A DNA stretch of 63,419 nucleotides, filler included, from 4 parts of 4 records of this genome joined end to end with filler, not necessarily neighbours in it, one strand, 5' to 3'; counted from the first letter of the whole stretch, positions 6,367 through 56,438 are shown. Notes: generated from the sequence alone by a model not told the origin. Made by a program: numbers and translations.

Positions 6367-6466
6367 NNNNNNNNNNNNNNNNNNNNNNNNNNNNNNNNNN
6401 NNNNNNNNNNTTAATTAATTAANNNNNNNNNNNNNNNNNNNNNNNNNNNNNNNNNNNNNNNNNNNN
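6367..6466. other. Artificial contig spacer
   Basis: N-run with central TTAATTAATTAA (stops in all six frames); abrupt GC shift across it. Confidence 0.98.
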
Positions 6467-23283: not shown

Positions 23284-24015
23284 TTAGGGATTGAGCGCTT
23301 CCTTCAGCACAATGGCTTTTTCACGGTTGTAGGAATAACCTGACTTCACATAGTGCTCTAGGAGTTTTTGTGCACTTTTAGCATCATCATTTTTCAACTG
23401 CGCAAGTATCAAGTACCAATTGATCGTAGGAATATACGCGCTTTCCACTCCCGAATCAAGAGTAGATTGGAGCAGTACTACTGATTTTTCGGGTTGATTA
23501 TTTTCGACATAGCAAACGGCAAGGTAGATGGTCACTATCGGCAAAGAATCGCTTGAAACTTGTTCAAAATAAGGTATTGCCAAGGCATAATTTCCAGCAT
23601 TGTACTGTTTCATTGCTATTTCTAAATCACCATTATCGCCTTGACTCATTTGTGTAATTCTATCAGGATACGGAGCGAAGTATTCTGCGGCTAACTCAAC
23701 AGAATTGGTAGAATTCGACGTTTGTAACCAGAGATAAGCCGGCACAGAGATCAACGCTAAGATGAAAACAGCAGCGATAACTTTTCTCCACGGAAAAGAA
23801 GTAGTTGCACCACGATGCAGTTGATGAATCCGTTGGCGTTCCAGATCTTTCGCACGTGCTTCGAGTAAAAGACCTAAACCGCGCTGAATTTTCACTTCTT
23901 CCTGCAGAAGCGGATCTTCGGAAAGTGTCTTCTCAAATGCCATTCGTTCGACATCCGATAACCTCCCACTTAGATAATTTTCGATTACTTCCGTTCTCTT
24001 TTCCGTCTCCATCAT
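23284..24015 (-). CDS. Putative anti-sigma factor: N-terminal cytoplasmic domain, one TM helix, C-terminal TPR-like domain
   Basis: 'IENYLSGRLSDVERMAFEKTLSEDPLLQEEV'; TM 'VIAAVFILALISVPAYLWL'; TPR-like 'AMKQYNAGNYALAIPYFE', 'WYLILAQLK'; ATGA overlap with the sigma gene. Confidence 0.75.
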   Translation of the reverse strand: MMETEKRTEVIENYLSGRLSDVERMAFEKTLSEDPLLQEEVKIQRGLGLLLEARAKDLERQRIHQLHRGATTSFPWRKVIAAVFILALISVPAYLWLQTSNSTNSVELAAEYFAPYPDRITQMSQGDNGDLEIAMKQYNAGNYALAIPYFEQVSSDSLPIVTIYLAVCYVENNQPEKSVVLLQSTLDSGVESAYIPTINWYLILAQLKNDDAKSAQKLLEHYVKSGYSYNREKAIVLKEALNP

Positions 24016-24605
24016 TGCAGATAATTTAATAAGTGCTCCTTCAACGATTGATTCGACGCGACATGCGATTTAAGTGCAGTCAAACACTTATTTTTCTTAT
24101 TCATAGCTATTTGCGCATTCTTATAGGACATGTGTAGAGCAATTTCGGTCATGGAATAATGCATACTCCACAATTCCAGTACTTTTTTACAGCTTGCTCC
24201 GATATGTGATAGAACCGCTTCTAAGCTCAATTTTAAATCGCCGTAAAGTTCCTTGATCGTATCTTCTTCCGAAGCTTCATCCAACTGATCATTCCAATCC
24301 GCGTGTTTCTTTTCTTTACGCAGGTGTTTGAGCCAAAGTCCTTTGCAGATGGAAAAAAGATAGGTATTCAAGCTGCTTTCACCGCGAAATGCTCCTTTTC
24401 TCACATTGAACAACAATTCCATAATTCCCTCGATCAAAATACTCGAAGCCATTTCTCGATTACCACTATTCTTCAATACATAGCCATAAATGGGAGATTC
24501 ATTCTTTTTAAGTAAGAACGAAATCACCTTGTCTTCCGACGCGCCTCCTTGTTTGATTCCTTCTATAACTTCCTGATCAGAATATGTTCTAAATAATCTT
24601 GGCAT
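24012..24605 (-). CDS. ECF-type RNA polymerase sigma-70 factor
   Basis: Region 2 'SSLNTYLFSICKGLWLKHLR'; region 4 'CKKVLEL..YSMTEIA..MSYKN..AMNKKNKCL'; ATG 24605 lies downstream of the promoter motif. Confidence 0.88.
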   Translation of the reverse strand: MPRLFRTYSDQEVIEGIKQGGASEDKVISFLLKKNESPIYGYVLKNSGNREMASSILIEGIMELLFNVRKGAFRGESSLNTYLFSICKGLWLKHLRKEKKHADWNDQLDEASEEDTIKELYGDLKLSLEAVLSHIGASCKKVLELWSMHYSMTEIALHMSYKNAQIAMNKKNKCLTALKSHVASNQSLKEHLLNYLQ

Positions 24606-24658
24606 AGTTTGACAAATATACGCGTTTCCGTGCGCAGACTTTTTTTTGATTTCAAAGG

Positions 24659-24688
24659 TAAGTCTCTCGAAGAAAGAAACCCTAACCA
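24659..24688 (-). promoter_or_regulatory. Putative ECF promoter for the sigma/anti-sigma operon
   Basis: Minus strand TGGTTAG-N16-AGACTTA. Confidence 0.6.
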
Positions 24689-24711
24689 ATTAGAAAAAAA
24701 TAATTTGTTTT

Positions 24712-24741
24712 TGGTTAGATTTAGCCGTCGAATTGCACTAA
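24712..24741 (+). promoter_or_regulatory. Putative ECF promoter for the PKD/DUF7619-like gene
   Basis: TGGTTAG-N16-GCACTAA, 15 nt upstream of ATG 24757. Confidence 0.7.
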
Positions 24742-24756
24742 CGATGGATAATAAAA

Positions 24757-26193
24757 ATGAATCCTATGTTTAAACGTTTAATTACATCTTTGATAACCGC
24801 ATTTTTACTGATTTTTAGCGGTTTCACGCTCAGTCAGCAGTCCGTGCAACACACTCCAGGAAATCGCGATAGATTTCAAATTACTCCGGCATTTCAACCC
24901 ACAAATCCACGGTCGGTATTTACCACTTTATGGTGGTTCGGCGATGGTGGTTACCGAATAATTCAGGGGCAGGCTGCAGCCCATTCATTCCATAATCCTA
25001 GTCAAATCAAAACCAACTTCCCTCCCTCGTCCTACAAAATTTTCGGAATTGTTACCGAAAATTATGGAAATACGGGACCTCCACCTGTGGTTGGTGTAGA
25101 CATTAACTACGGAAATTTAAGTCAGCCATTTGTTCCAAGTTTGCCGAAAATACTGAACGGCGTAACGAATTCAAATTATATCGACATTCGCAACTACCGT
25201 GATGCTGTTTTAGGTGACATTGTATATTTTATTGTGACTTACGGAAATCCTGAAGGTGGGAATGTTCTGAATCCTGAAAGCTATATCACCCTTGATTTTG
25301 GGGAGCACTCCGCTGATTTTGAGTACGCGATGAATGACAACACACGTCCCTCATTTTTGGCACATTGCGAATCATTTGCAGGAAACACGCACGAATTGAA
25401 ATGGAATATCGGATCGCCAATTAATCCAGGTGAAGAGCGGTCAATGTTACTTCCATTTAGATACAAAGGTTCAGAAAAGTCGGGAAGTTTTCCCGTTGCG
25501 ATAACCTTTCACCGTTCGGATTTAGTTCCTTCTCCTATTTTCACGGAAGAAACGGCATCGATCGCAATGAAATTTAGCGGGTCCCACGATCCGAATAGAA
25601 TTGAAGTAACTCCCGAAAACACCGACTGTGTCGTTGGCGGTAAAACCCTCAACTACAATATTCACTTTCAAAATGTGGGTGAGAAGGAAACACGTTATGT
25701 AAAAGTGGAAGTAAGCCTTGATGAAATGCATGATTTGTCAACGATTCATTTAACACGACTTCCGCACGGTATGTCCTTAAATCAATCCAATGCGCTTGTT
25801 GGATTTCCTTCAACTATTTCAAATACCCAAGCAAATTATTGGATCGATCAGAGCAATCACAAAGTGATTTTCGAGTTTCACAACCTAGTCCTCAGTGGAC
25901 TGTCTGATACGCTCTTAAACGATCCCGCTACAACGAGAGATATGTTTTCGTTTGAAGTGAAAGTGAAAAATAATTACGTGATTGGTGAAGATATAACGGC
26001 AAAAGCAGCCATTATTTTCGATGAAAACGATCCTGTAATCACCAATATTGCTGTTTCGACGTGTCCCAACCCTGTTTTGACTAATGAAAAGCCGTCAAAA
26101 TGGTGCGGCTGTTGGATTGTATATATTCTATTAGGAATTATTGTACTCTTACTTTTACTCCTGTTCTTGAGTCGAAAAAAGCAAAAAAAATAG
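24757..26193 (+). CDS. Exported PKD-like / DUF11-DUF7619-like protein with C-terminal membrane anchor
   Basis: Signal peptide; 'WWFGDG'; 'GSHDPN...LNYNIHFQNVG...AAIIFDENDPVITN'; C-terminal TM plus 'SRKKQKK'. Confidence 0.75.
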   Translation: MNPMFKRLITSLITAFLLIFSGFTLSQQSVQHTPGNRDRFQITPAFQPTNPRSVFTTLWWFGDGGYRIIQGQAAAHSFHNPSQIKTNFPPSSYKIFGIVTENYGNTGPPPVVGVDINYGNLSQPFVPSLPKILNGVTNSNYIDIRNYRDAVLGDIVYFIVTYGNPEGGNVLNPESYITLDFGEHSADFEYAMNDNTRPSFLAHCESFAGNTHELKWNIGSPINPGEERSMLLPFRYKGSEKSGSFPVAITFHRSDLVPSPIFTEETASIAMKFSGSHDPNRIEVTPENTDCVVGGKTLNYNIHFQNVGEKETRYVKVEVSLDEMHDLSTIHLTRLPHGMSLNQSNALVGFPSTISNTQANYWIDQSNHKVIFEFHNLVLSGLSDTLLNDPATTRDMFSFEVKVKNNYVIGEDITAKAAIIFDENDPVITNIAVSTCPNPVLTNEKPSKWCGCWIVYILLGIIVLLLLLLFLSRKKQKK

Positions 26194-26210
26194 CCTAAAA
26201 AACACTTTTT

Positions 26211-26243
26211 AGAAGGACTTCATTGATGTGAGGTCCTTTTTTT
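26211..26243 (+). terminator. Rho-independent terminator
   Basis: AAGGACTTCA / TGAGGTCCTT plus T-run. Confidence 0.75.
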
Positions 26244-26301
26244 GCGTTGAGTTGTACAAACTAATTGTTTATTTTCGCAGTGCATTTAAAACGGTGTTTG
26301 G

Positions 26302-29070
26302 TTGTTGAAATCCCTGATTCTTGTCGCTTTAGTCTTTGTTTCGTTAGCGACAAGTGTTGCACATGCGAATGCCCCCATTGATGCACTAAAGCATGAAATT
26401 CAGACCTATCGGAAGCAAAAGAAACTAGAGCTTTGGATCAATGCGCACAAAGCAATTGCGAAGCAGCACTTGGCGTCGTTGGAATATAAAAAAGCAATCT
26501 CTATTATTGATGAAATGGAGCGCACGAACTGGCGCAAACCTTCAACTCAAGCAGAAAAAATAGCCTGGTGTTGGGCAATTACGAACAGAGGTTATGTCAA
26601 ATCAGAAGGAGGCGATTATTTCGGAGCAAAAGAAGATTATCTAAACGTATTAATTGATTTTGAAGCATTCAATTATTTGGACCTCAATGTAATTAATCAC
26701 GTATATCACCCATTGGGAAATATTTACACTCGATTGGGAGAAAATGAGCAAGCCATTCGATTGTTGACTAAGTTTATTGAAGCAAACGTTACTGTCGACA
26801 ACAAACATTTCATCGGTTTAGGCTATAATGATTTAGGATTAGCATTCGCGAATAAAGGAGATTTTATAAGTGCGCTTGATTGTTACAACAAGGGCTTACA
26901 ACTTTCTGGAGAATCCAATGAAGCGAAAGGATTACTCGCTTCAAATGCTGCCGCTGCATCACTGAACACCGAAGAATATGACACCGGAATCCGCTTCGCG
27001 ATGAGCAGTCTTGCTTATTTTTCACGCATCGAAGGAGATTATCGAATCATGGGATATCAGGCTGGTGCGTATATTTCACTTGGAATGATTCTAACCAAAA
27101 AAGGTGACTTTGTAGAAGCCCAGCGCAACTTCATGCTCGCCGAGAACAAATTAACGGTGTGTCTACCGGAAAGGCAACACAGAACTTGGGGTAAATTATG
27201 TTTAGCCCGCGGAGAGAATCTTTTGAAACAGGGAAATCCAAGTGAAGCGCTTGCACATTATCAATCGGCACTTAAATCTGTCATTATTCGCTTCCATCCA
27301 ACATCGGATCATGAACTTCCGAACATTTCTCAATTATATCCCGAGGTAATTATTTTGGAAGCGCTGCTGAAGAAAGCAGAAGCCTACCGTGTTTTTGGCG
27401 AGAAAGAGAAGATGAAGGGCCATTTAGAACATTCTTATAGACATTACGAATATTACTTTTTGGCTGAGGGACTTTACAGAAGAGAATATACGAATCTCGA
27501 TTCAAAGCTGTCATTCATTCGAGAATTACACGATACTGGTGAGGAGGCACTTCAAGTAATCACATCACTTTATGCGCTTTCAAAAGATGAATCCTGGTTG
27601 CTGAAAGGTGTTTTATTGACAGAAAAGACGAAAGGGATTCTTTTATCCGAGTCAAACTTTGACAGTGCACTGAAAAATCGGCAATCATTACCAAAGGAAA
27701 TCCAAGAGTTGATTCGATACAGAAGTTATTCAGAATCCATTCAAGCGCAATTGTCCAAAGCGGGACTTAACAACGAAGGTGCTTCCATGAAATTTCTGAA
27801 AGAGCAGGACTTTCAATTAAGTCAAGAACTATTGCTTCTTACGGAGATTGTAAAGAAGAAATATCCCGCCATTTATAGAAATATGGCGACAACAAACTCC
27901 TTTGACACGCGTGATTTTGACCGTTTCATTCGTAAATTTCCCGTCAACACCATCACCTACTATTTCGGCAGTCAAGATGTGTATTGCTTTGGAATTATTA
28001 AGGGAAAAATTTACCTACATATTGAGTCCGTTTCGGAGACCTTAAGTAACCGCTTAAACATACTTAGAACACAATTAGCGACACCTGATTACGGTGCATT
28101 CACTTCCTACAAACGTGCTGCTGTTGGCTGTTATTCAGCTTTTATAAAGCCTTTTGAAACGTATCTTTCACAACACGAGCTACTCATTATTCCCGACGGA
28201 CCGCTCGCACTTTTGCCGTTTGAAGCATTTGCGAAAGGAAAAGGAACCAATTTCAAGAAACTAGATTACCTCGTCAGAAATTATGAAATCAGGTATGCTT
28301 ATTCTATGAAGCGTTTGATGAAGCCTCATCACCAAAATCAATTCAAAGAAAATTTTTTAGGCATTGCTCCACTCTTTAAAAATGGTTCAGAGTACGCTGA
28401 ATTGCCGTATTCGGAAAGTGAAATCAACGCAGGATTGAAATTGGGTGGAATTTCCTTGTTGGGGAAAGATGCGACGAAGAAAAAATTCATTGCGAACGCA
28501 GCCTATTATCGTATCCTTCACCTTTCAACACATGCGACAACGTGGGACGAGCGCTTCCATCAAGCTTCCATCGCTTTTTCTGGTAAAGACCCAATCAATA
28601 AACGTCACCTATTGACTTCCGAGTTAGCGACGCTCGATTGTGCACCTGAATTAATCGTTCTAAGCGCATGCGAAACTGGCTCGGGCGATTATATGAAAGG
28701 CGAAGGAGTAATGAGTTTGTCTAAAAGTTTTGCGCAAACGGGGAGTCGAAATATTATGGGATCGCTCTGGAAAGTAAATCACGCAGCGAACAGTGAAATT
28801 CTAAGTGATTTTTATAAAAGATTACCTGCAAACAACCCAAGTAAAGCGCTGACCTTCGCGAAGCGCCAGTATTTGAGCAACGAAAACGTCGACGAATTTA
28901 GCGCGCACCCACATTATTGGTCAAGCATGGTATTGGTAGGCTCGAATCAACTTTCGCTCAACACCCATATTTCTTGGGGGAATTGGTGGATACTTGGTGG
29001 CTCCACGGTTGGAATTTTTCTGCTGATCGTCCTAATTAAACTGAAACGAAGAGCACAATTGTCCAAGTAG
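26302..29070 (+). CDS. TPR-CHAT (caspase-like clan CD) protease with signal peptide and C-terminal TM anchor
   Basis: TPRs; CHAT motifs IIPDGPLALLPFEA, ILHLSTHA (His), VLSACETG (Cys), GEGVMSL, SLWKV, HPHYWS; TM 'WWILGGSTVGIFLLIVLI' plus KLKRR. Confidence 0.93.
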   Translation: MLKSLILVALVFVSLATSVAHANAPIDALKHEIQTYRKQKKLELWINAHKAIAKQHLASLEYKKAISIIDEMERTNWRKPSTQAEKIAWCWAITNRGYVKSEGGDYFGAKEDYLNVLIDFEAFNYLDLNVINHVYHPLGNIYTRLGENEQAIRLLTKFIEANVTVDNKHFIGLGYNDLGLAFANKGDFISALDCYNKGLQLSGESNEAKGLLASNAAAASLNTEEYDTGIRFAMSSLAYFSRIEGDYRIMGYQAGAYISLGMILTKKGDFVEAQRNFMLAENKLTVCLPERQHRTWGKLCLARGENLLKQGNPSEALAHYQSALKSVIIRFHPTSDHELPNISQLYPEVIILEALLKKAEAYRVFGEKEKMKGHLEHSYRHYEYYFLAEGLYRREYTNLDSKLSFIRELHDTGEEALQVITSLYALSKDESWLLKGVLLTEKTKGILLSESNFDSALKNRQSLPKEIQELIRYRSYSESIQAQLSKAGLNNEGASMKFLKEQDFQLSQELLLLTEIVKKKYPAIYRNMATTNSFDTRDFDRFIRKFPVNTITYYFGSQDVYCFGIIKGKIYLHIESVSETLSNRLNILRTQLATPDYGAFTSYKRAAVGCYSAFIKPFETYLSQHELLIIPDGPLALLPFEAFAKGKGTNFKKLDYLVRNYEIRYAYSMKRLMKPHHQNQFKENFLGIAPLFKNGSEYAELPYSESEINAGLKLGGISLLGKDATKKKFIANAAYYRILHLSTHATTWDERFHQASIAFSGKDPINKRHLLTSELATLDCAPELIVLSACETGSGDYMKGEGVMSLSKSFAQTGSRNIMGSLWKVNHAANSEILSDFYKRLPANNPSKALTFAKRQYLSNENVDEFSAHPHYWSSMVLVGSNQLSLNTHISWGNWWILGGSTVGIFLLIVLIKLKRRAQLSK

Positions 29071-29253
29071 GAAATCTTCCGTTGCGCGATTTTCCATTAT
29101 CTAATGTACTGTTTTCACAAGTTCGAATCTAAGTAAGTTCAACAATAATTCCCATTTCAATGATAAAATAGTGGCGGATAGAAGTATTTCTCACTATTAT
29201 AAACAACTGACTCACAGCCTATTAAAAAAATATTTTTTTTAAAAACACATTCA

Positions 29254-29283
29254 TGGTTAGGTTCTTGAACTGAACGGCACTCA
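29254..29283 (+). promoter_or_regulatory. Putative ECF promoter for the paralogous small-protein pair
   Basis: TGGTTAG-N16-GCACTCA, same spacing as 24712-24741. Confidence 0.7.
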
Positions 29284-29360
29284 TCAATGATTGGATGCAA
29301 ATTCATCAGGACGAAAGCCGAAAAGTCCTTCATAGAGTAGGCAACTTAAAAAAAACTAAT

Positions 29361-29831
29361 ATGAGTAATTTATTATCACTTGGAGAATTTGAATTGATCT
29401 TAAAGAAACAATCTCCTAACGACTTCAGAACAGACGGCTGCATCAAATGGCCACCGATTTTTGATTTCTTCTTTCCTCCAATGTTCGACCTATTTGCGCG
29501 TTCAAATGAATTGGTTAAAAATGCGAGCGTCAATCAAACTCCTGATTCCGTGAAAGAGTTGGGTTTCCGTATTGAAAATCAACTTATCCCAAAATTGAAA
29601 CAAGCGACCAGCGTTGAAGAAGCAGATACGATCGTCAAGGAAATTTTTTACGAATACCCAGAGATGAAAATGCTTGTTGCTGAATACAGTGACAAAGTGA
29701 AAGAAAGTCTTGGAAACAGCAGTGATCCAACACTTATGATGATTCCGCCGGTGATTGCTGTAATTGTAGTTAGAGCTGTAGCGGTGTACGCAATTGGATA
29801 TGGTATAGGCTACTTTTTTGGTGGTAAGTAA
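29361..29831 (+). CDS. Hypothetical protein A (156 aa) with C-terminal hydrophobic GxxxG bacteriocin-like peptide
   Basis: ATG 29361 after an A-rich leader; paralogous to the next ORF (MSNLLSLGEFEL vs MNEILSLGNVEL); tail MIPPVIAVIVVRAVAVYAIGYGIGYFFGGK. Confidence 0.75.
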   Translation: MSNLLSLGEFELILKKQSPNDFRTDGCIKWPPIFDFFFPPMFDLFARSNELVKNASVNQTPDSVKELGFRIENQLIPKLKQATSVEEADTIVKEIFYEYPEMKMLVAEYSDKVKESLGNSSDPTLMMIPPVIAVIVVRAVAVYAIGYGIGYFFGGK

Positions 29832-29850: not shown

Positions 29851-30327
29851 ATGAATGAAATATTATCACTTGGAAATGTTGAACTTTTCCTTCGCGGAAA
29901 GTCTTCAAGCGGAAGTCTTCAGACAAAACAGTTATTGACAAATACGGAATGTATCTCAACTCCTGATTGGTGGATTGAACTCCTTCCATTTTTGTTCAAC
30001 TACTACATGAAGGGGTCAAGCATAGGATCAAAAGATTTTAGTACAGACTATCCCTATACCGCTGTTGATTTGCAAAAAAGTCTGACCGAAAAGATCATTC
30101 CTTCGGTTAAAAGAATGGAGGATTTCGATGCGATACACACTTCGTTGAAAGACGTTTATGCAGCACTTCCAGAAGCTAAATTCGCAATGAATGCCATTAA
30201 AACAGACGTCGGTTGTTCACCAAACTCAGGACCTGGCGCAATACAAGCAATTCCAATAATTCCGATTGTTTATGGCTTGATCTTTTTACTCGGCGTGAGT
30301 GATGGACTGAGAAATAAAAAGAAGTAA
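29851..30327 (+). CDS. Hypothetical protein B (158 aa), paralog of A, with C-terminal hydrophobic GxxxG peptide
   Basis: ATG 29851; tail AIPIIPIVYGLIFLLGVSDGLRNKKK; followed by a terminator. Confidence 0.75.
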   Translation: MNEILSLGNVELFLRGKSSSGSLQTKQLLTNTECISTPDWWIELLPFLFNYYMKGSSIGSKDFSTDYPYTAVDLQKSLTEKIIPSVKRMEDFDAIHTSLKDVYAALPEAKFAMNAIKTDVGCSPNSGPGAIQAIPIIPIVYGLIFLLGVSDGLRNKKK

Positions 30328-37896: not shown

Positions 37897-37958
37897 TGCG
37901 GATGGAGGGACTCGAACCCACACACCTCGCGGCACTAGATCCTAAGTCTAGCGTGTCT
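37897..37958 (-). tRNA. tRNA-Leu(TAG), 5' end cut by contig end
   Basis: Minus strand CTAGA-CTTAGGA-TCTAG anticodon arm, long variable arm, GGTTCGAGTCC T-arm, CATCCGC-A acceptor end. Confidence 0.93.
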
Positions 37959-38058
37959 NNNNNNNNNNNNNNNNNNNNNNNNNNNNNNNNNNNNNNNNNN
38001 NNTTAATTAATTAANNNNNNNNNNNNNNNNNNNNNNNNNNNNNNNNNNNNNNNNNNNN
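37959..38058. other. Artificial contig spacer
   Basis: N-run with TTAATTAATTAA; AT-rich to GC-rich switch. Confidence 0.98.
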
Positions 38059-56338: not shown

Positions 56339-56438
56339 NNNNNNNNNNNNNNNNNNNNNNNNNNNNNNNNNNNNNNNNNNNNTTAATTAATTAANNNNNN
56401 NNNNNNNNNNNNNNNNNNNNNNNNNNNNNNNNNNNNNN
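56339..56438. other. Artificial contig spacer
   Basis: N-run with TTAATTAATTAA. Confidence 0.98.

Follow-up and report, generated by a model that had tools for sequence, protein, structure and literature searches.

The stretch of DNA described here, 63,419 bases long and hereafter called the window, carries between positions 24659 and 29283 three copies of the bipartite motif TGGTTAG-N18-ACTNA; these are very likely the target promoters of a sigma factor of the extracytoplasmic function (ECF) type, encoded at 24012-24605. The initial annotation had proposed a local ECF regulon from this motif, and phylogenetic footprinting, a position matrix built independently of the window, unlinked orthologous targets and the co-occurrence of sigma factor and motif all argue for it. 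As for autoregulation, also part of that proposal, a site is indeed present 5′ of the sigma gene, but it is the weakest match of the three, and among the 13 closest syntenic loci there are 5 with no site on the sigma side; on these sequences, autoregulation is the least secure part of the regulon reading.

The motif is oriented towards the gene downstream of it, its copies on the sigma side and on the divergent side are conserved in other genomes, and the bipartite -35/-10 layout is also found 5′ of the gene of the sigma factor itself.

The three promoter-like sites

Direct reading of the sequence finds all three copies where the initial annotation had placed them. Site 1 (TGGTTAGGGTTTCTTTCTTCGAGAGACTTA, TGGTTAG-N18-ACTTA) runs from 24688 to 24659 on the minus strand and faces the sigma gene; site 2 (TGGTTAGATTTAGCCGTCGAATTGCACTAA, TGGTTAG-N18-ACTAA) is at 24712-24741 on the plus strand, 5′ of a gene for a DUF7619 protein; site 3 (TGGTTAGGTTCTTGAACTGAACGGCACTCA, TGGTTAGGTT...GGCACTCA), at 29254-29283 on the plus strand, stands ahead of an RNA leader and a pair of small-protein genes. 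The N18 spacing is identical in the three copies and an A/T tract lies 5′ of each, as had been noted, while sites 1 and 2 are back to back in the divergent region, with their -35 boxes 23 nt apart. Each copy faces a gene start, the distance from the end of the downstream box to the ATG being 53 nt for the sigma gene (ATG at 24605), 15 nt for the gene starting at 24757 and 77 nt for the small-protein gene starting at 29361.

Regarding their frequency, the pattern TGGTTAG-N18-ACTNA occurs three times on the two strands of the window against 0.01 expected, and none of 100 shuffles reached three; on the 31,491-bp contig that carries the locus, the three copies compare with a mean of 0.01, and Markov shuffles had at least one copy in 10 of 1000 cases and at least three in none, all of these shuffle figures overstating the significance because the pattern was defined after the sequence had been viewed. 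The TGGTTAG heptamer alone is not enriched in the window (6 found, 4.0 expected; 22 of 100 shuffles reached 6), and a scan for promoters of the E. coli type stayed at background (20 found, 16.0 expected). Chance is a poor account of the three copies together, although these counts would be insufficient on their own to decide the question.

Site 1 has a perfect upstream box, and its downstream box, GAGACTTAC, deviates from the family motif at three positions; by the family matrix it scores 10.0 bits, the weakest match of the three, and ranks eighth on the contig. Between site 1 and the ATG at 24605, the predicted 5′ leader of the sigma gene contains a small G+C-rich hairpin (24619-24636; GCGCACGGAAACGCGT).

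The sigma factor and the anti-sigma-like protein

The sigma protein has 197 aa and is encoded on the minus strand, from the ATG at 24605 to 24012. Curated sequence models match it below their cut-offs (16.9 bits against 24 for Pfam Sigma70_r2 and 40.7 against 42.9 for TIGR02937), Pfam gives no Sigma70_r4 match in it, and a precomputed PF04542 match is present in only 3 of 56 of its homologues. Its family profile matches the solved ECF sigmas AlgU (8z6g/6in7) and SigW (5wuq), with E values from 7e-7 to 2.5e-6. In the AlphaFold2 model (pLDDT 79.9), residues 103-117 form a disordered linker that connects two helical domains; a Foldseek search with this model returned ECF-type sigmas at all ranks from 1 to 21, the best matches extending over 165-191 columns, and the sigma-2 domain of the model fits region 2 of E. 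coli sigma-E bound to -10 DNA with a TM score of 0.81. The protein is a divergent ECF-type (group 4) member missed by the standard sequence models.

The start of the next gene (23284-24015, minus strand) overlaps the sigma stop codon. It encodes an anti-sigma-like protein of 243 aa with a single membrane helix and an extracytoplasmic TPR part; anti-sigma models match it weakly (E 9e-5, below cut-off), and its N-terminal part contains no cysteine. The gene adjoins that of the sigma factor in most of the 80 loci compared below.

Conservation of the motif at related loci

A word-indexed search returned the 56 sigma homologues, the best with 58% identity; few of them come from named organisms, and several are from metagenome-assembled genomes of Crocinitomicaceae. 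The window sigma and 33 of the 56 homologues made up the search alignment, with which one genome per species was scanned. Relatives were encoded in 160 stretches, of which the best 80 were kept as loci (L numbers) and form the basis of all counts given for 80 loci; the sigma clade is thus present in at least 160 species-level genomes of Bacteroidota. By tblastn, the arrangement of the window, with the sigma and anti-sigma genes on one side and, in divergent orientation, a DUF7619 gene and then a CHAT gene on the other, recurs in L001, L002, L004, L006, L008-L012 and L015. The flanks retrieved for 44 of the 80 loci contain a CHAT gene, a lower bound since many loci are short contigs; no conserved DNA-binding regulator other than the sigma factor was found at the 80 loci by tblastn with the proteins of the window.

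Upstream of the sigma homologues, on both strands and in many Bacteroidota genomes, a wider motif is found, consisting of GGTTA[G/C/T][G/C]TTTT, 9-11 nt, and [G/A]G[T/A]A[C/T][T/C]AA; judged on their sequence, the three copies of the window belong to it. Its composition emerges when the 104 occurrences of GGTTA within 300 nt upstream of sigma genes are compared with the 1707 elsewhere in the loci: upstream of sigma, positions +7 to +10 after GGTTA are T with frequencies of 0.59-0.73 (0.25-0.32 elsewhere), +26 is C with 0.54 (0.21 elsewhere) and +28 is A with 0.74 (0.32 elsewhere). The bipartite alignment takes in 53 of the 104, with the downstream box 20, 21, 22 or 24 nt from the first G in 7, 16, 29 and 1 sites, respectively. 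The motif has four forms that track the sigma clade: the closer relatives have GGTTAG...GTACTAA, one Crocinitomicaceae group has GGTTAT...AACCAA, a high-GC flavobacterial group has GGTTACG...CACCAA, and Chitinophagaceae have GGGTTACC...GTATTAA. The literal TGGTTAG pattern is present in 2 of the 80 loci (L001 and L012), just 5′ of the sigma gene and on the opposite strand.

The position matrix was built from other genomes only and includes no window sequence. Applied to both strands of the whole window, it places the copy at 29255(+), site 3, first with 22.8 bits and the copy at 24713(+), site 2, second with 14.7 bits; the third match (12.6 bits) falls within the CHAT gene on the wrong strand, and beyond the three sites the next scores on the contig, from 12.6 to 10.6 bits, are within genes or lack a promoter-like context. 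None of 200 window shuffles and none of 300 contig shuffles reached 22.8 bits. A score of at least 14.7 bits occurred in 60 of the 200 and 55 of the 300; because shuffles reach this value often, site 2 is convincing only jointly with its position in the divergent intergenic region.

Since the matrix was trained on the regions upstream of the sigma genes, the locus counts describe the motif and are no test of it: 39 of the 80 loci have a site of at least 14 bits in the 450 nt 5′ of sigma (sigma side in 30 loci, divergent side in 26, both sides in 17), and 59 of the 94 such sites in the 1,084,030 bases of the loci lie within these upstream stretches. L001, the closest locus, has the same back-to-back arrangement as the window, with a sigma-side site of 25.7 bits. 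A further site directly 3′ of the CHAT gene, as in the window, is present in L011, L012 and L015.

Two other placements of the motif were observed at these loci. In L013 (3446-5342) and L014 (5964-7867, minus strand) there are four tandem promoter copies, about 550-700 nt apart, each preceding a gene for a small secreted protein or lipoprotein. In L010 (8404), L015 (8380) and L002 (4265), on the plus strand, a motif-like site lies within the sigma coding region and reads towards the anti-sigma gene; it falls in region 4, at codons R-L-G ... V-L-R, and is either a possible internal promoter or an incidental result of these codons.

Occurrence of the motif across genomes

The genome-wide scan that the initial annotation had suggested came out at background for the literal motif: with the spacer widened to 18-19 nt, TGGTTAG-N18/19-ACTNA had 23 matches in five sigma-bearing genomes, all five of them matched, against 54 for the reversed-pattern control. 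The specificity resides in additional positions, namely the TTT after the -35 box and the G-x ahead of ACTAA. The stringent pattern GGTTAGGTT-N15/16-ACYMA had 44 matches in 22 sigma-bearing genomes, 20 of which were matched, with 34 for the reversed control. About 31 of the 44 matches, from coordinates read by hand, are away from the sigma loci, and nearly all of these also have the consensus bases that the pattern leaves unspecified.

In 61 genomes sampled from the family of genome G043 as a matched control, the stringent pattern matched twice, in two genomes, against 53 matches of the reversed control. A sigma orthologue is encoded in one of these 61 genomes, G043 itself (E 5.8e-89, the next best being 2.9e-34), and the stringent pattern occurs once in G043, at a small-protein promoter, and once in total across the other 60. 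On this distribution, stringent motif and sigma orthologue co-occur; no probability is assigned to the co-occurrence because the genomes are mutually related and the pattern was drawn from the sigma-bearing set.

In genome G042, which has the closest sigma homologue, unlinked high-quality copies of the promoter are found on three contigs, at C42:19894, C72:1699 and C129:1332 (L118, L123 and L127); they precede a 153-aa protein without family match and two near-identical secreted M43 peptidase/PKD proteins.

The small-protein pair and its DUF805b leader

Site 3 precedes two paralogous genes on the plus strand, one for small protein A (156 aa, beginning MSNLLSLGEFEL...; 29361-29831) and one for small protein B (158 aa; 29851-30327), both tail-anchored by a C-terminal membrane helix and without family match. 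The start of the first gene is not at 29295 but at the ATG at 29361, which follows a DUF805b RNA motif (Rfam RF02914) at 29308-29343. The DUF805b RNA motif has been proposed to be cis-regulatory. The match on the plus strand covers the full model (positions 1-35) with 41.6 bits, above the gathering cut-off of 35.6.

Five sigma-bearing genomes contain 34 DUF805b matches, 20 of them above the cut-off. In the 30 copies that were read, an ATG lies 15-25 nt downstream, as in the window, and a GGTTAG promoter stands ahead of the motif in three; as only 3 of the 30 follow the promoter of the sigma factor, DUF805b is a general leader element and not specific to the regulon. Two of these three copies, in G043 and in a further genome, G044, lead into homologues of the small proteins of the window, unlinked to the sigma locus in both cases (at a distance of 1.17 Mb in G043, on a different contig in G044). 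All four leaders can be aligned over the promoter, over a short stretch that includes TGAATGC and over the DUF805b motif. The small proteins and their homologues share an (I/L)SLG N-terminus, one Cys, a Pro/aromatic stretch and the C-terminal membrane helix, together with a helical part ending in Y/F-x-x-P. The link between the orphan pair and the sigma factor, for which the motif had been the argument, is thereby strengthened by evidence from outside the window, as unlinked homologues stand behind the same promoter and leader.

The family is rare: a search of 1.84 billion proteins gave 28 representatives at E <= 0.001, and the word-indexed search gave one protein; tblastn with the small proteins gave no match at any of the 80 sigma loci.

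Alternative explanations

Several observations weigh against the assignment of the three sites to the sigma factor. The matrix and the stringent pattern derive from the same sigma-bearing genomes, which makes their counts at sigma loci circular; genome-wide, the literal pattern stays below its control and the stringent one exceeds its control only modestly (23 against 54 and 44 against 34, respectively). Site 1, on the sigma side, has 10.0 bits only. In L002, L004, L010, L012 and L015, which are the 5 of the 13 closest syntenic loci mentioned above, a site of at least 14 bits is present on the divergent side and none on the sigma side, and L003, L006, L008 and L009, with the GGTTAT/AACCAA form, are under the 14-bit threshold. 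The downstream box is, in part, the reverse complement of the upstream box, and in L003 and L005-L009 the opposed sites merge into the perfect palindrome TTGGTTATGTT-N10-AACATAACCAA, the -35 box of one promoter being the -10 box of the other. Lastly, in nine distant loci (L013, L016, L018, L019, L020, L023, L024, L026 and L031), and not in the window, the downstream box ends with its last A inside the sigma ATG (GTACTAATGTTY), which is always followed by TTY; the pairwise differences at the three codon positions are 187, 175 and 257, the third being the most variable. The overlap does not fit canonical ECF spacing, because the usual distance to the start point would drop the start codon from the message; taken from these sequences, it implies either that the message is leaderless, which would place the box at -8 to -1, or that the start point lies at an unusual distance from the box. 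Leaderless mRNAs are given as 5.5% of the mRNAs in the account of Flavobacterium psychrophilum (PMC9723704).

The mirror relation of the two boxes (CTAAC to GTTAG, AACCA to TGGTT) would suit operator half-sites of a dimeric transcription factor, with no sigma involved, and so would the perfect inverted repeat of the six loci just named and the everted repeat formed by the two copies in the divergent region of the window. This explanation is nonetheless very unlikely: site 3 and the unlinked targets in G042-G044 have a single oriented copy before one gene, ACTAA and ACCAA share one -10-like register when mirror images would need registers 2 nt apart, and the extended part of the upstream box (GTTTT) has no mirror partner; moreover, the geometry, with the downstream box 20-22 nt from the first G, fits ECF promoters, and the sigma factor is the sole DNA-binding regulator conserved in the locus. 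A different reader of the same promoters, namely a sigma paralogue from the same superfamily whose gene lies elsewhere in the genome, is still less probable, and quite improbable overall. Genomes of the G043 family do have several paralogues (four matches at E <= 1e-20 in G043, up to four in others), and overlapping ECF regulons are described for flavobacteria (PMC9723704), but the form of the motif goes with the clade to which the adjacent sigma belongs, and the 60 family genomes with paralogues only, or with none, gave a single match of the stringent motif.

That sites 2 and 3 depend on the sigma factor while site 1 is unused, the sigma operon being transcribed from another promoter without positive autoregulation, is unlikely, though it has to be taken seriously. 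The low score of site 1, the three departures in GAGACTTAC and the undetected sigma-side site in 5 of the 13 closest syntenic loci speak for it; on the other side are the perfect TGGTTAG, the identical spacing, the back-to-back placement with site 2, the same arrangement in L001 with 25.7 bits on the sigma side, the T at a departing position that is also found in L024 and L027 (GGTACTTAT) and the presence of a sigma-side site in 30 of the 80 loci. Mere chance resemblance of the three copies has a negligible probability. The definition of the pattern after the fact and the background frequency of the heptamer would allow it, but none of the 1000 contig shuffles reached three copies, the independent matrix places two of them first and second in the window, and the same motif stands at homologous positions in dozens of genomes.

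Proposed mechanism

With the sites read as promoters of the sigma factor, a mechanism can be outlined from the genes of the locus and from general knowledge of the ECF family. The sigma-4 domain would read the upstream box, GGTTAG(G)TTT, and the sigma-2 domain the downstream box, (G)xACT(A/C/T)A, 18 nt further. At rest, the sigma factor would be held by the membrane anti-sigma encoded beside it; once released, it would transcribe its own operon, from the weak site 1, the divergent DUF7619 gene and the small-protein pair, whose mRNA would begin with the DUF805b leader. The TPR-CHAT protein encoded between sites 2 and 3 is probably made independently of the sigma factor, given a terminator-like hairpin ahead of its gene and a putative housekeeping-type box of its own. 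By analogy with the DdvS/DdvA system of Myxococcus xanthus, this extracytoplasmic protein is the likely sensor of the signal and the likely remover of the anti-sigma, the candidate cut being one in which the TPR-CHAT protease takes off the TPR domain of the anti-sigma, as DdvA suggests.

A broader proposal is tentative, and on balance doubtful: the locus may represent an undescribed module, spread across Bacteroidota, in which a free, membrane-anchored extracytoplasmic TPR-CHAT caspase-like protease makes the site-1 cut, in trans, in a TPR anti-sigma and so releases a divergent ECF-like sigma factor with a GGTTAG/ACTAA code of its own. If so, the module would follow the DdvA principle in split form and have as its outputs secreted proteins that evolve fast and small proteins with a tail anchor. 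In many lineages the downstream box would directly adjoin the start codon of the sigma gene, the message of which would be leaderless; this would in turn mean a distance from box to start that is unusually short for an ECF holoenzyme.

Relation to known systems

The closest characterised analogue is DdvS/DdvA of M. xanthus (PMC11506125). As described there, DdvA is proposed to be cut by its own periplasmic TPR-CHAT part before RseP acts, and it is presented as the only characterised anti-sigma with TPR-CHAT, its relatives being reported only from Myxococcota and one Comamonas species. The likeness lies in the combination of an ECF-type sigma, a single-pass membrane anti-sigma (a putative one in the window) and an extracytoplasmic TPR-CHAT caspase-like module, in a proposed order of events that leads from CHAT-dependent cleavage through intramembrane proteolysis to the release of the sigma, and in a small local regulon that the sigma, in the window by prediction, reads besides its own promoter. 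The two systems differ in several respects. In DdvA, according to the same account, TPR-CHAT and anti-sigma form one chain and the active site of TPR-CHAT is incomplete, whereas in the window TPR-CHAT is a separate protein of 922 aa with both His and Cys, and the anti-sigma of 243 aa has TPR only, so that there is no fused chain of the DdvA type. DdvA has a CHCC zinc domain, while the anti-sigma of the window is without N-terminal cysteine. The DdvS regulon is reported as a CBASS/CRISPR defence island; PADLOC, in contrast, gave 0 matches for the seven proteins of the window that were run, and a reading of the locus as a defence system was rejected on that result. Finally, the reported relatives of DdvA are outside Bacteroidota, and the arrangement of the window is split and in Bacteroidota.

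As for other ECF groups, ECF54 of Actinobacteria (Casas-Pastor et al. 2021, PMC7826278) has the promoter GTATCAG (-35) and CTCC (-10); it differs from the present case in its phylum, in having no anti-sigma reported in that account and in its subtilase and carboxypeptidase-regulatory-like neighbour. The supplement text of that classification, in the portion reaching ECF295, mentions CHAT only for actinobacterial ECF54, with no Bacteroidetes CHAT group; in the same portion the string GGTT occurs nowhere, and no group with a GGTT-type promoter is given. The craspase of type III-E CRISPR (Csx29, Csx30 and an RpoE-like sigma; PMC10028731) is similar as described, in that a TPR-CHAT protease is coupled to the control of an ECF-type sigma, and the CHAT protein of the window weakly matches the NCBIfam model of Csx29 (E 6e-4, far below cut-off). 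Craspase is, however, described as cytoplasmic and RNA-guided, while the window has no cas genes and its protease is predicted to be extracytoplasmic. The SM6 promoters of F. psychrophilum, as presented in PMC9723704, likewise belong to an alternative sigma and to this phylum, and one of them stands at a sigma/anti-sigma operon; unlike SM6, the motif here consists of GGTTAG and ACTAA boxes, without CGT.

The type of circuit is ordinary, and the sigma clade is poorly described. A promoter code for a clade that standard models miss would make small regulons readable from sequence alone, and it links an orphan family of tail-anchored proteins to a regulator. The locus also suggests that CHAT-gated sigma signalling exists in a second form, split between two proteins; DdvA of Myxococcus is presented as the sole characterised case of such signalling (PMC11506125).

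Make-up of the window and neighbouring genes

The window is a chain of contigs joined by artificial linkers, N44-TTAATTAATTAA-N44, at 6367-6466, 37959-38058 and 56339-56438. The locus contig (6467-37958; 31,491 bp) has 39.0% GC and the neighbouring contigs 53-63%, and its source is probably an organism other than that of the adjoining contigs; the best protein matches indicate that it is probably Crocinitomicaceae-like Bacteroidota. Genome G001 resembles the window at 99%, solely from 38059 on, in a contig of 58-63% GC. It was considered as a relative of the locus and set aside: it is without locus, sigma and motif, but as it is akin only to another contig, it is uninformative. For the same reason, a result of 0 in 41 from its lineage was not counted as a lineage-matched control; since the window is made of unrelated contigs, controls from a "nearest genome" do not apply to the locus. 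At the end of the locus contig, 37900-37958 on the minus strand resembles the 3′ half of a tRNA gene, cut off at the contig end; ARAGORN reports none.

The gene downstream of site 2 (24757-26193, plus strand) encodes a protein with a signal peptide and a C-terminal membrane helix, either secreted or membrane-anchored. It had been called a PKD gene; no Pfam PKD model matches it at E <= 0.01, although it has a WWFGDGG motif, and its sole Pfam match is DUF7619, with E 1.4e-20. Just 3′ of it, on the plus strand, a terminator-like hairpin with a T run is found at 26211-26240.

The TPR-CHAT gene follows (26302-29070, plus strand; TTG start). Its product of 922 aa has a signal peptide, a C-terminal membrane helix and a CHAT domain (PF12770, 162 bits, residues 611-881) in which the His and Cys of the caspase-like dyad are present, in LHLSTHA and LSACETG respectively, and it is predicted to be a protease. 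The Bacteroidota sigma-A box is given as TAnnTTTG at -12 to -5 in F. psychrophilum (PMC9723704), and TATTTTCG at 26270-26277 on the plus strand, 24 nt 5′ of the TTG start, is like it with one mismatch. The housekeeping-type box that had been assigned to the CHAT gene is thus plausible as a near-match, and orthologous loci have TAnnTTAG in the corresponding position; a separately expressed CHAT protein is likewise plausible on this sequence basis.

At 7 of 9 orthologous loci, by eye, TAnnTTAG lies exactly 4 nt 5′ of the CHAT ATG; of the two others, L012 has one extra base and in L001 the box is 16 nt from the ATG. A box so close to the start predicts a leaderless message in L002, L004, L006, L008, L010, L011, L012 and L015. 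The CHAT ATG at these loci lies within a hairpin, the arms of which, again by eye, change in a compensatory manner, with the pairs GTGGCA/TGCCAC, GTGGTA/TACCAC, GCGGTA/TACCGC and GCAGCA/TGCTGC.

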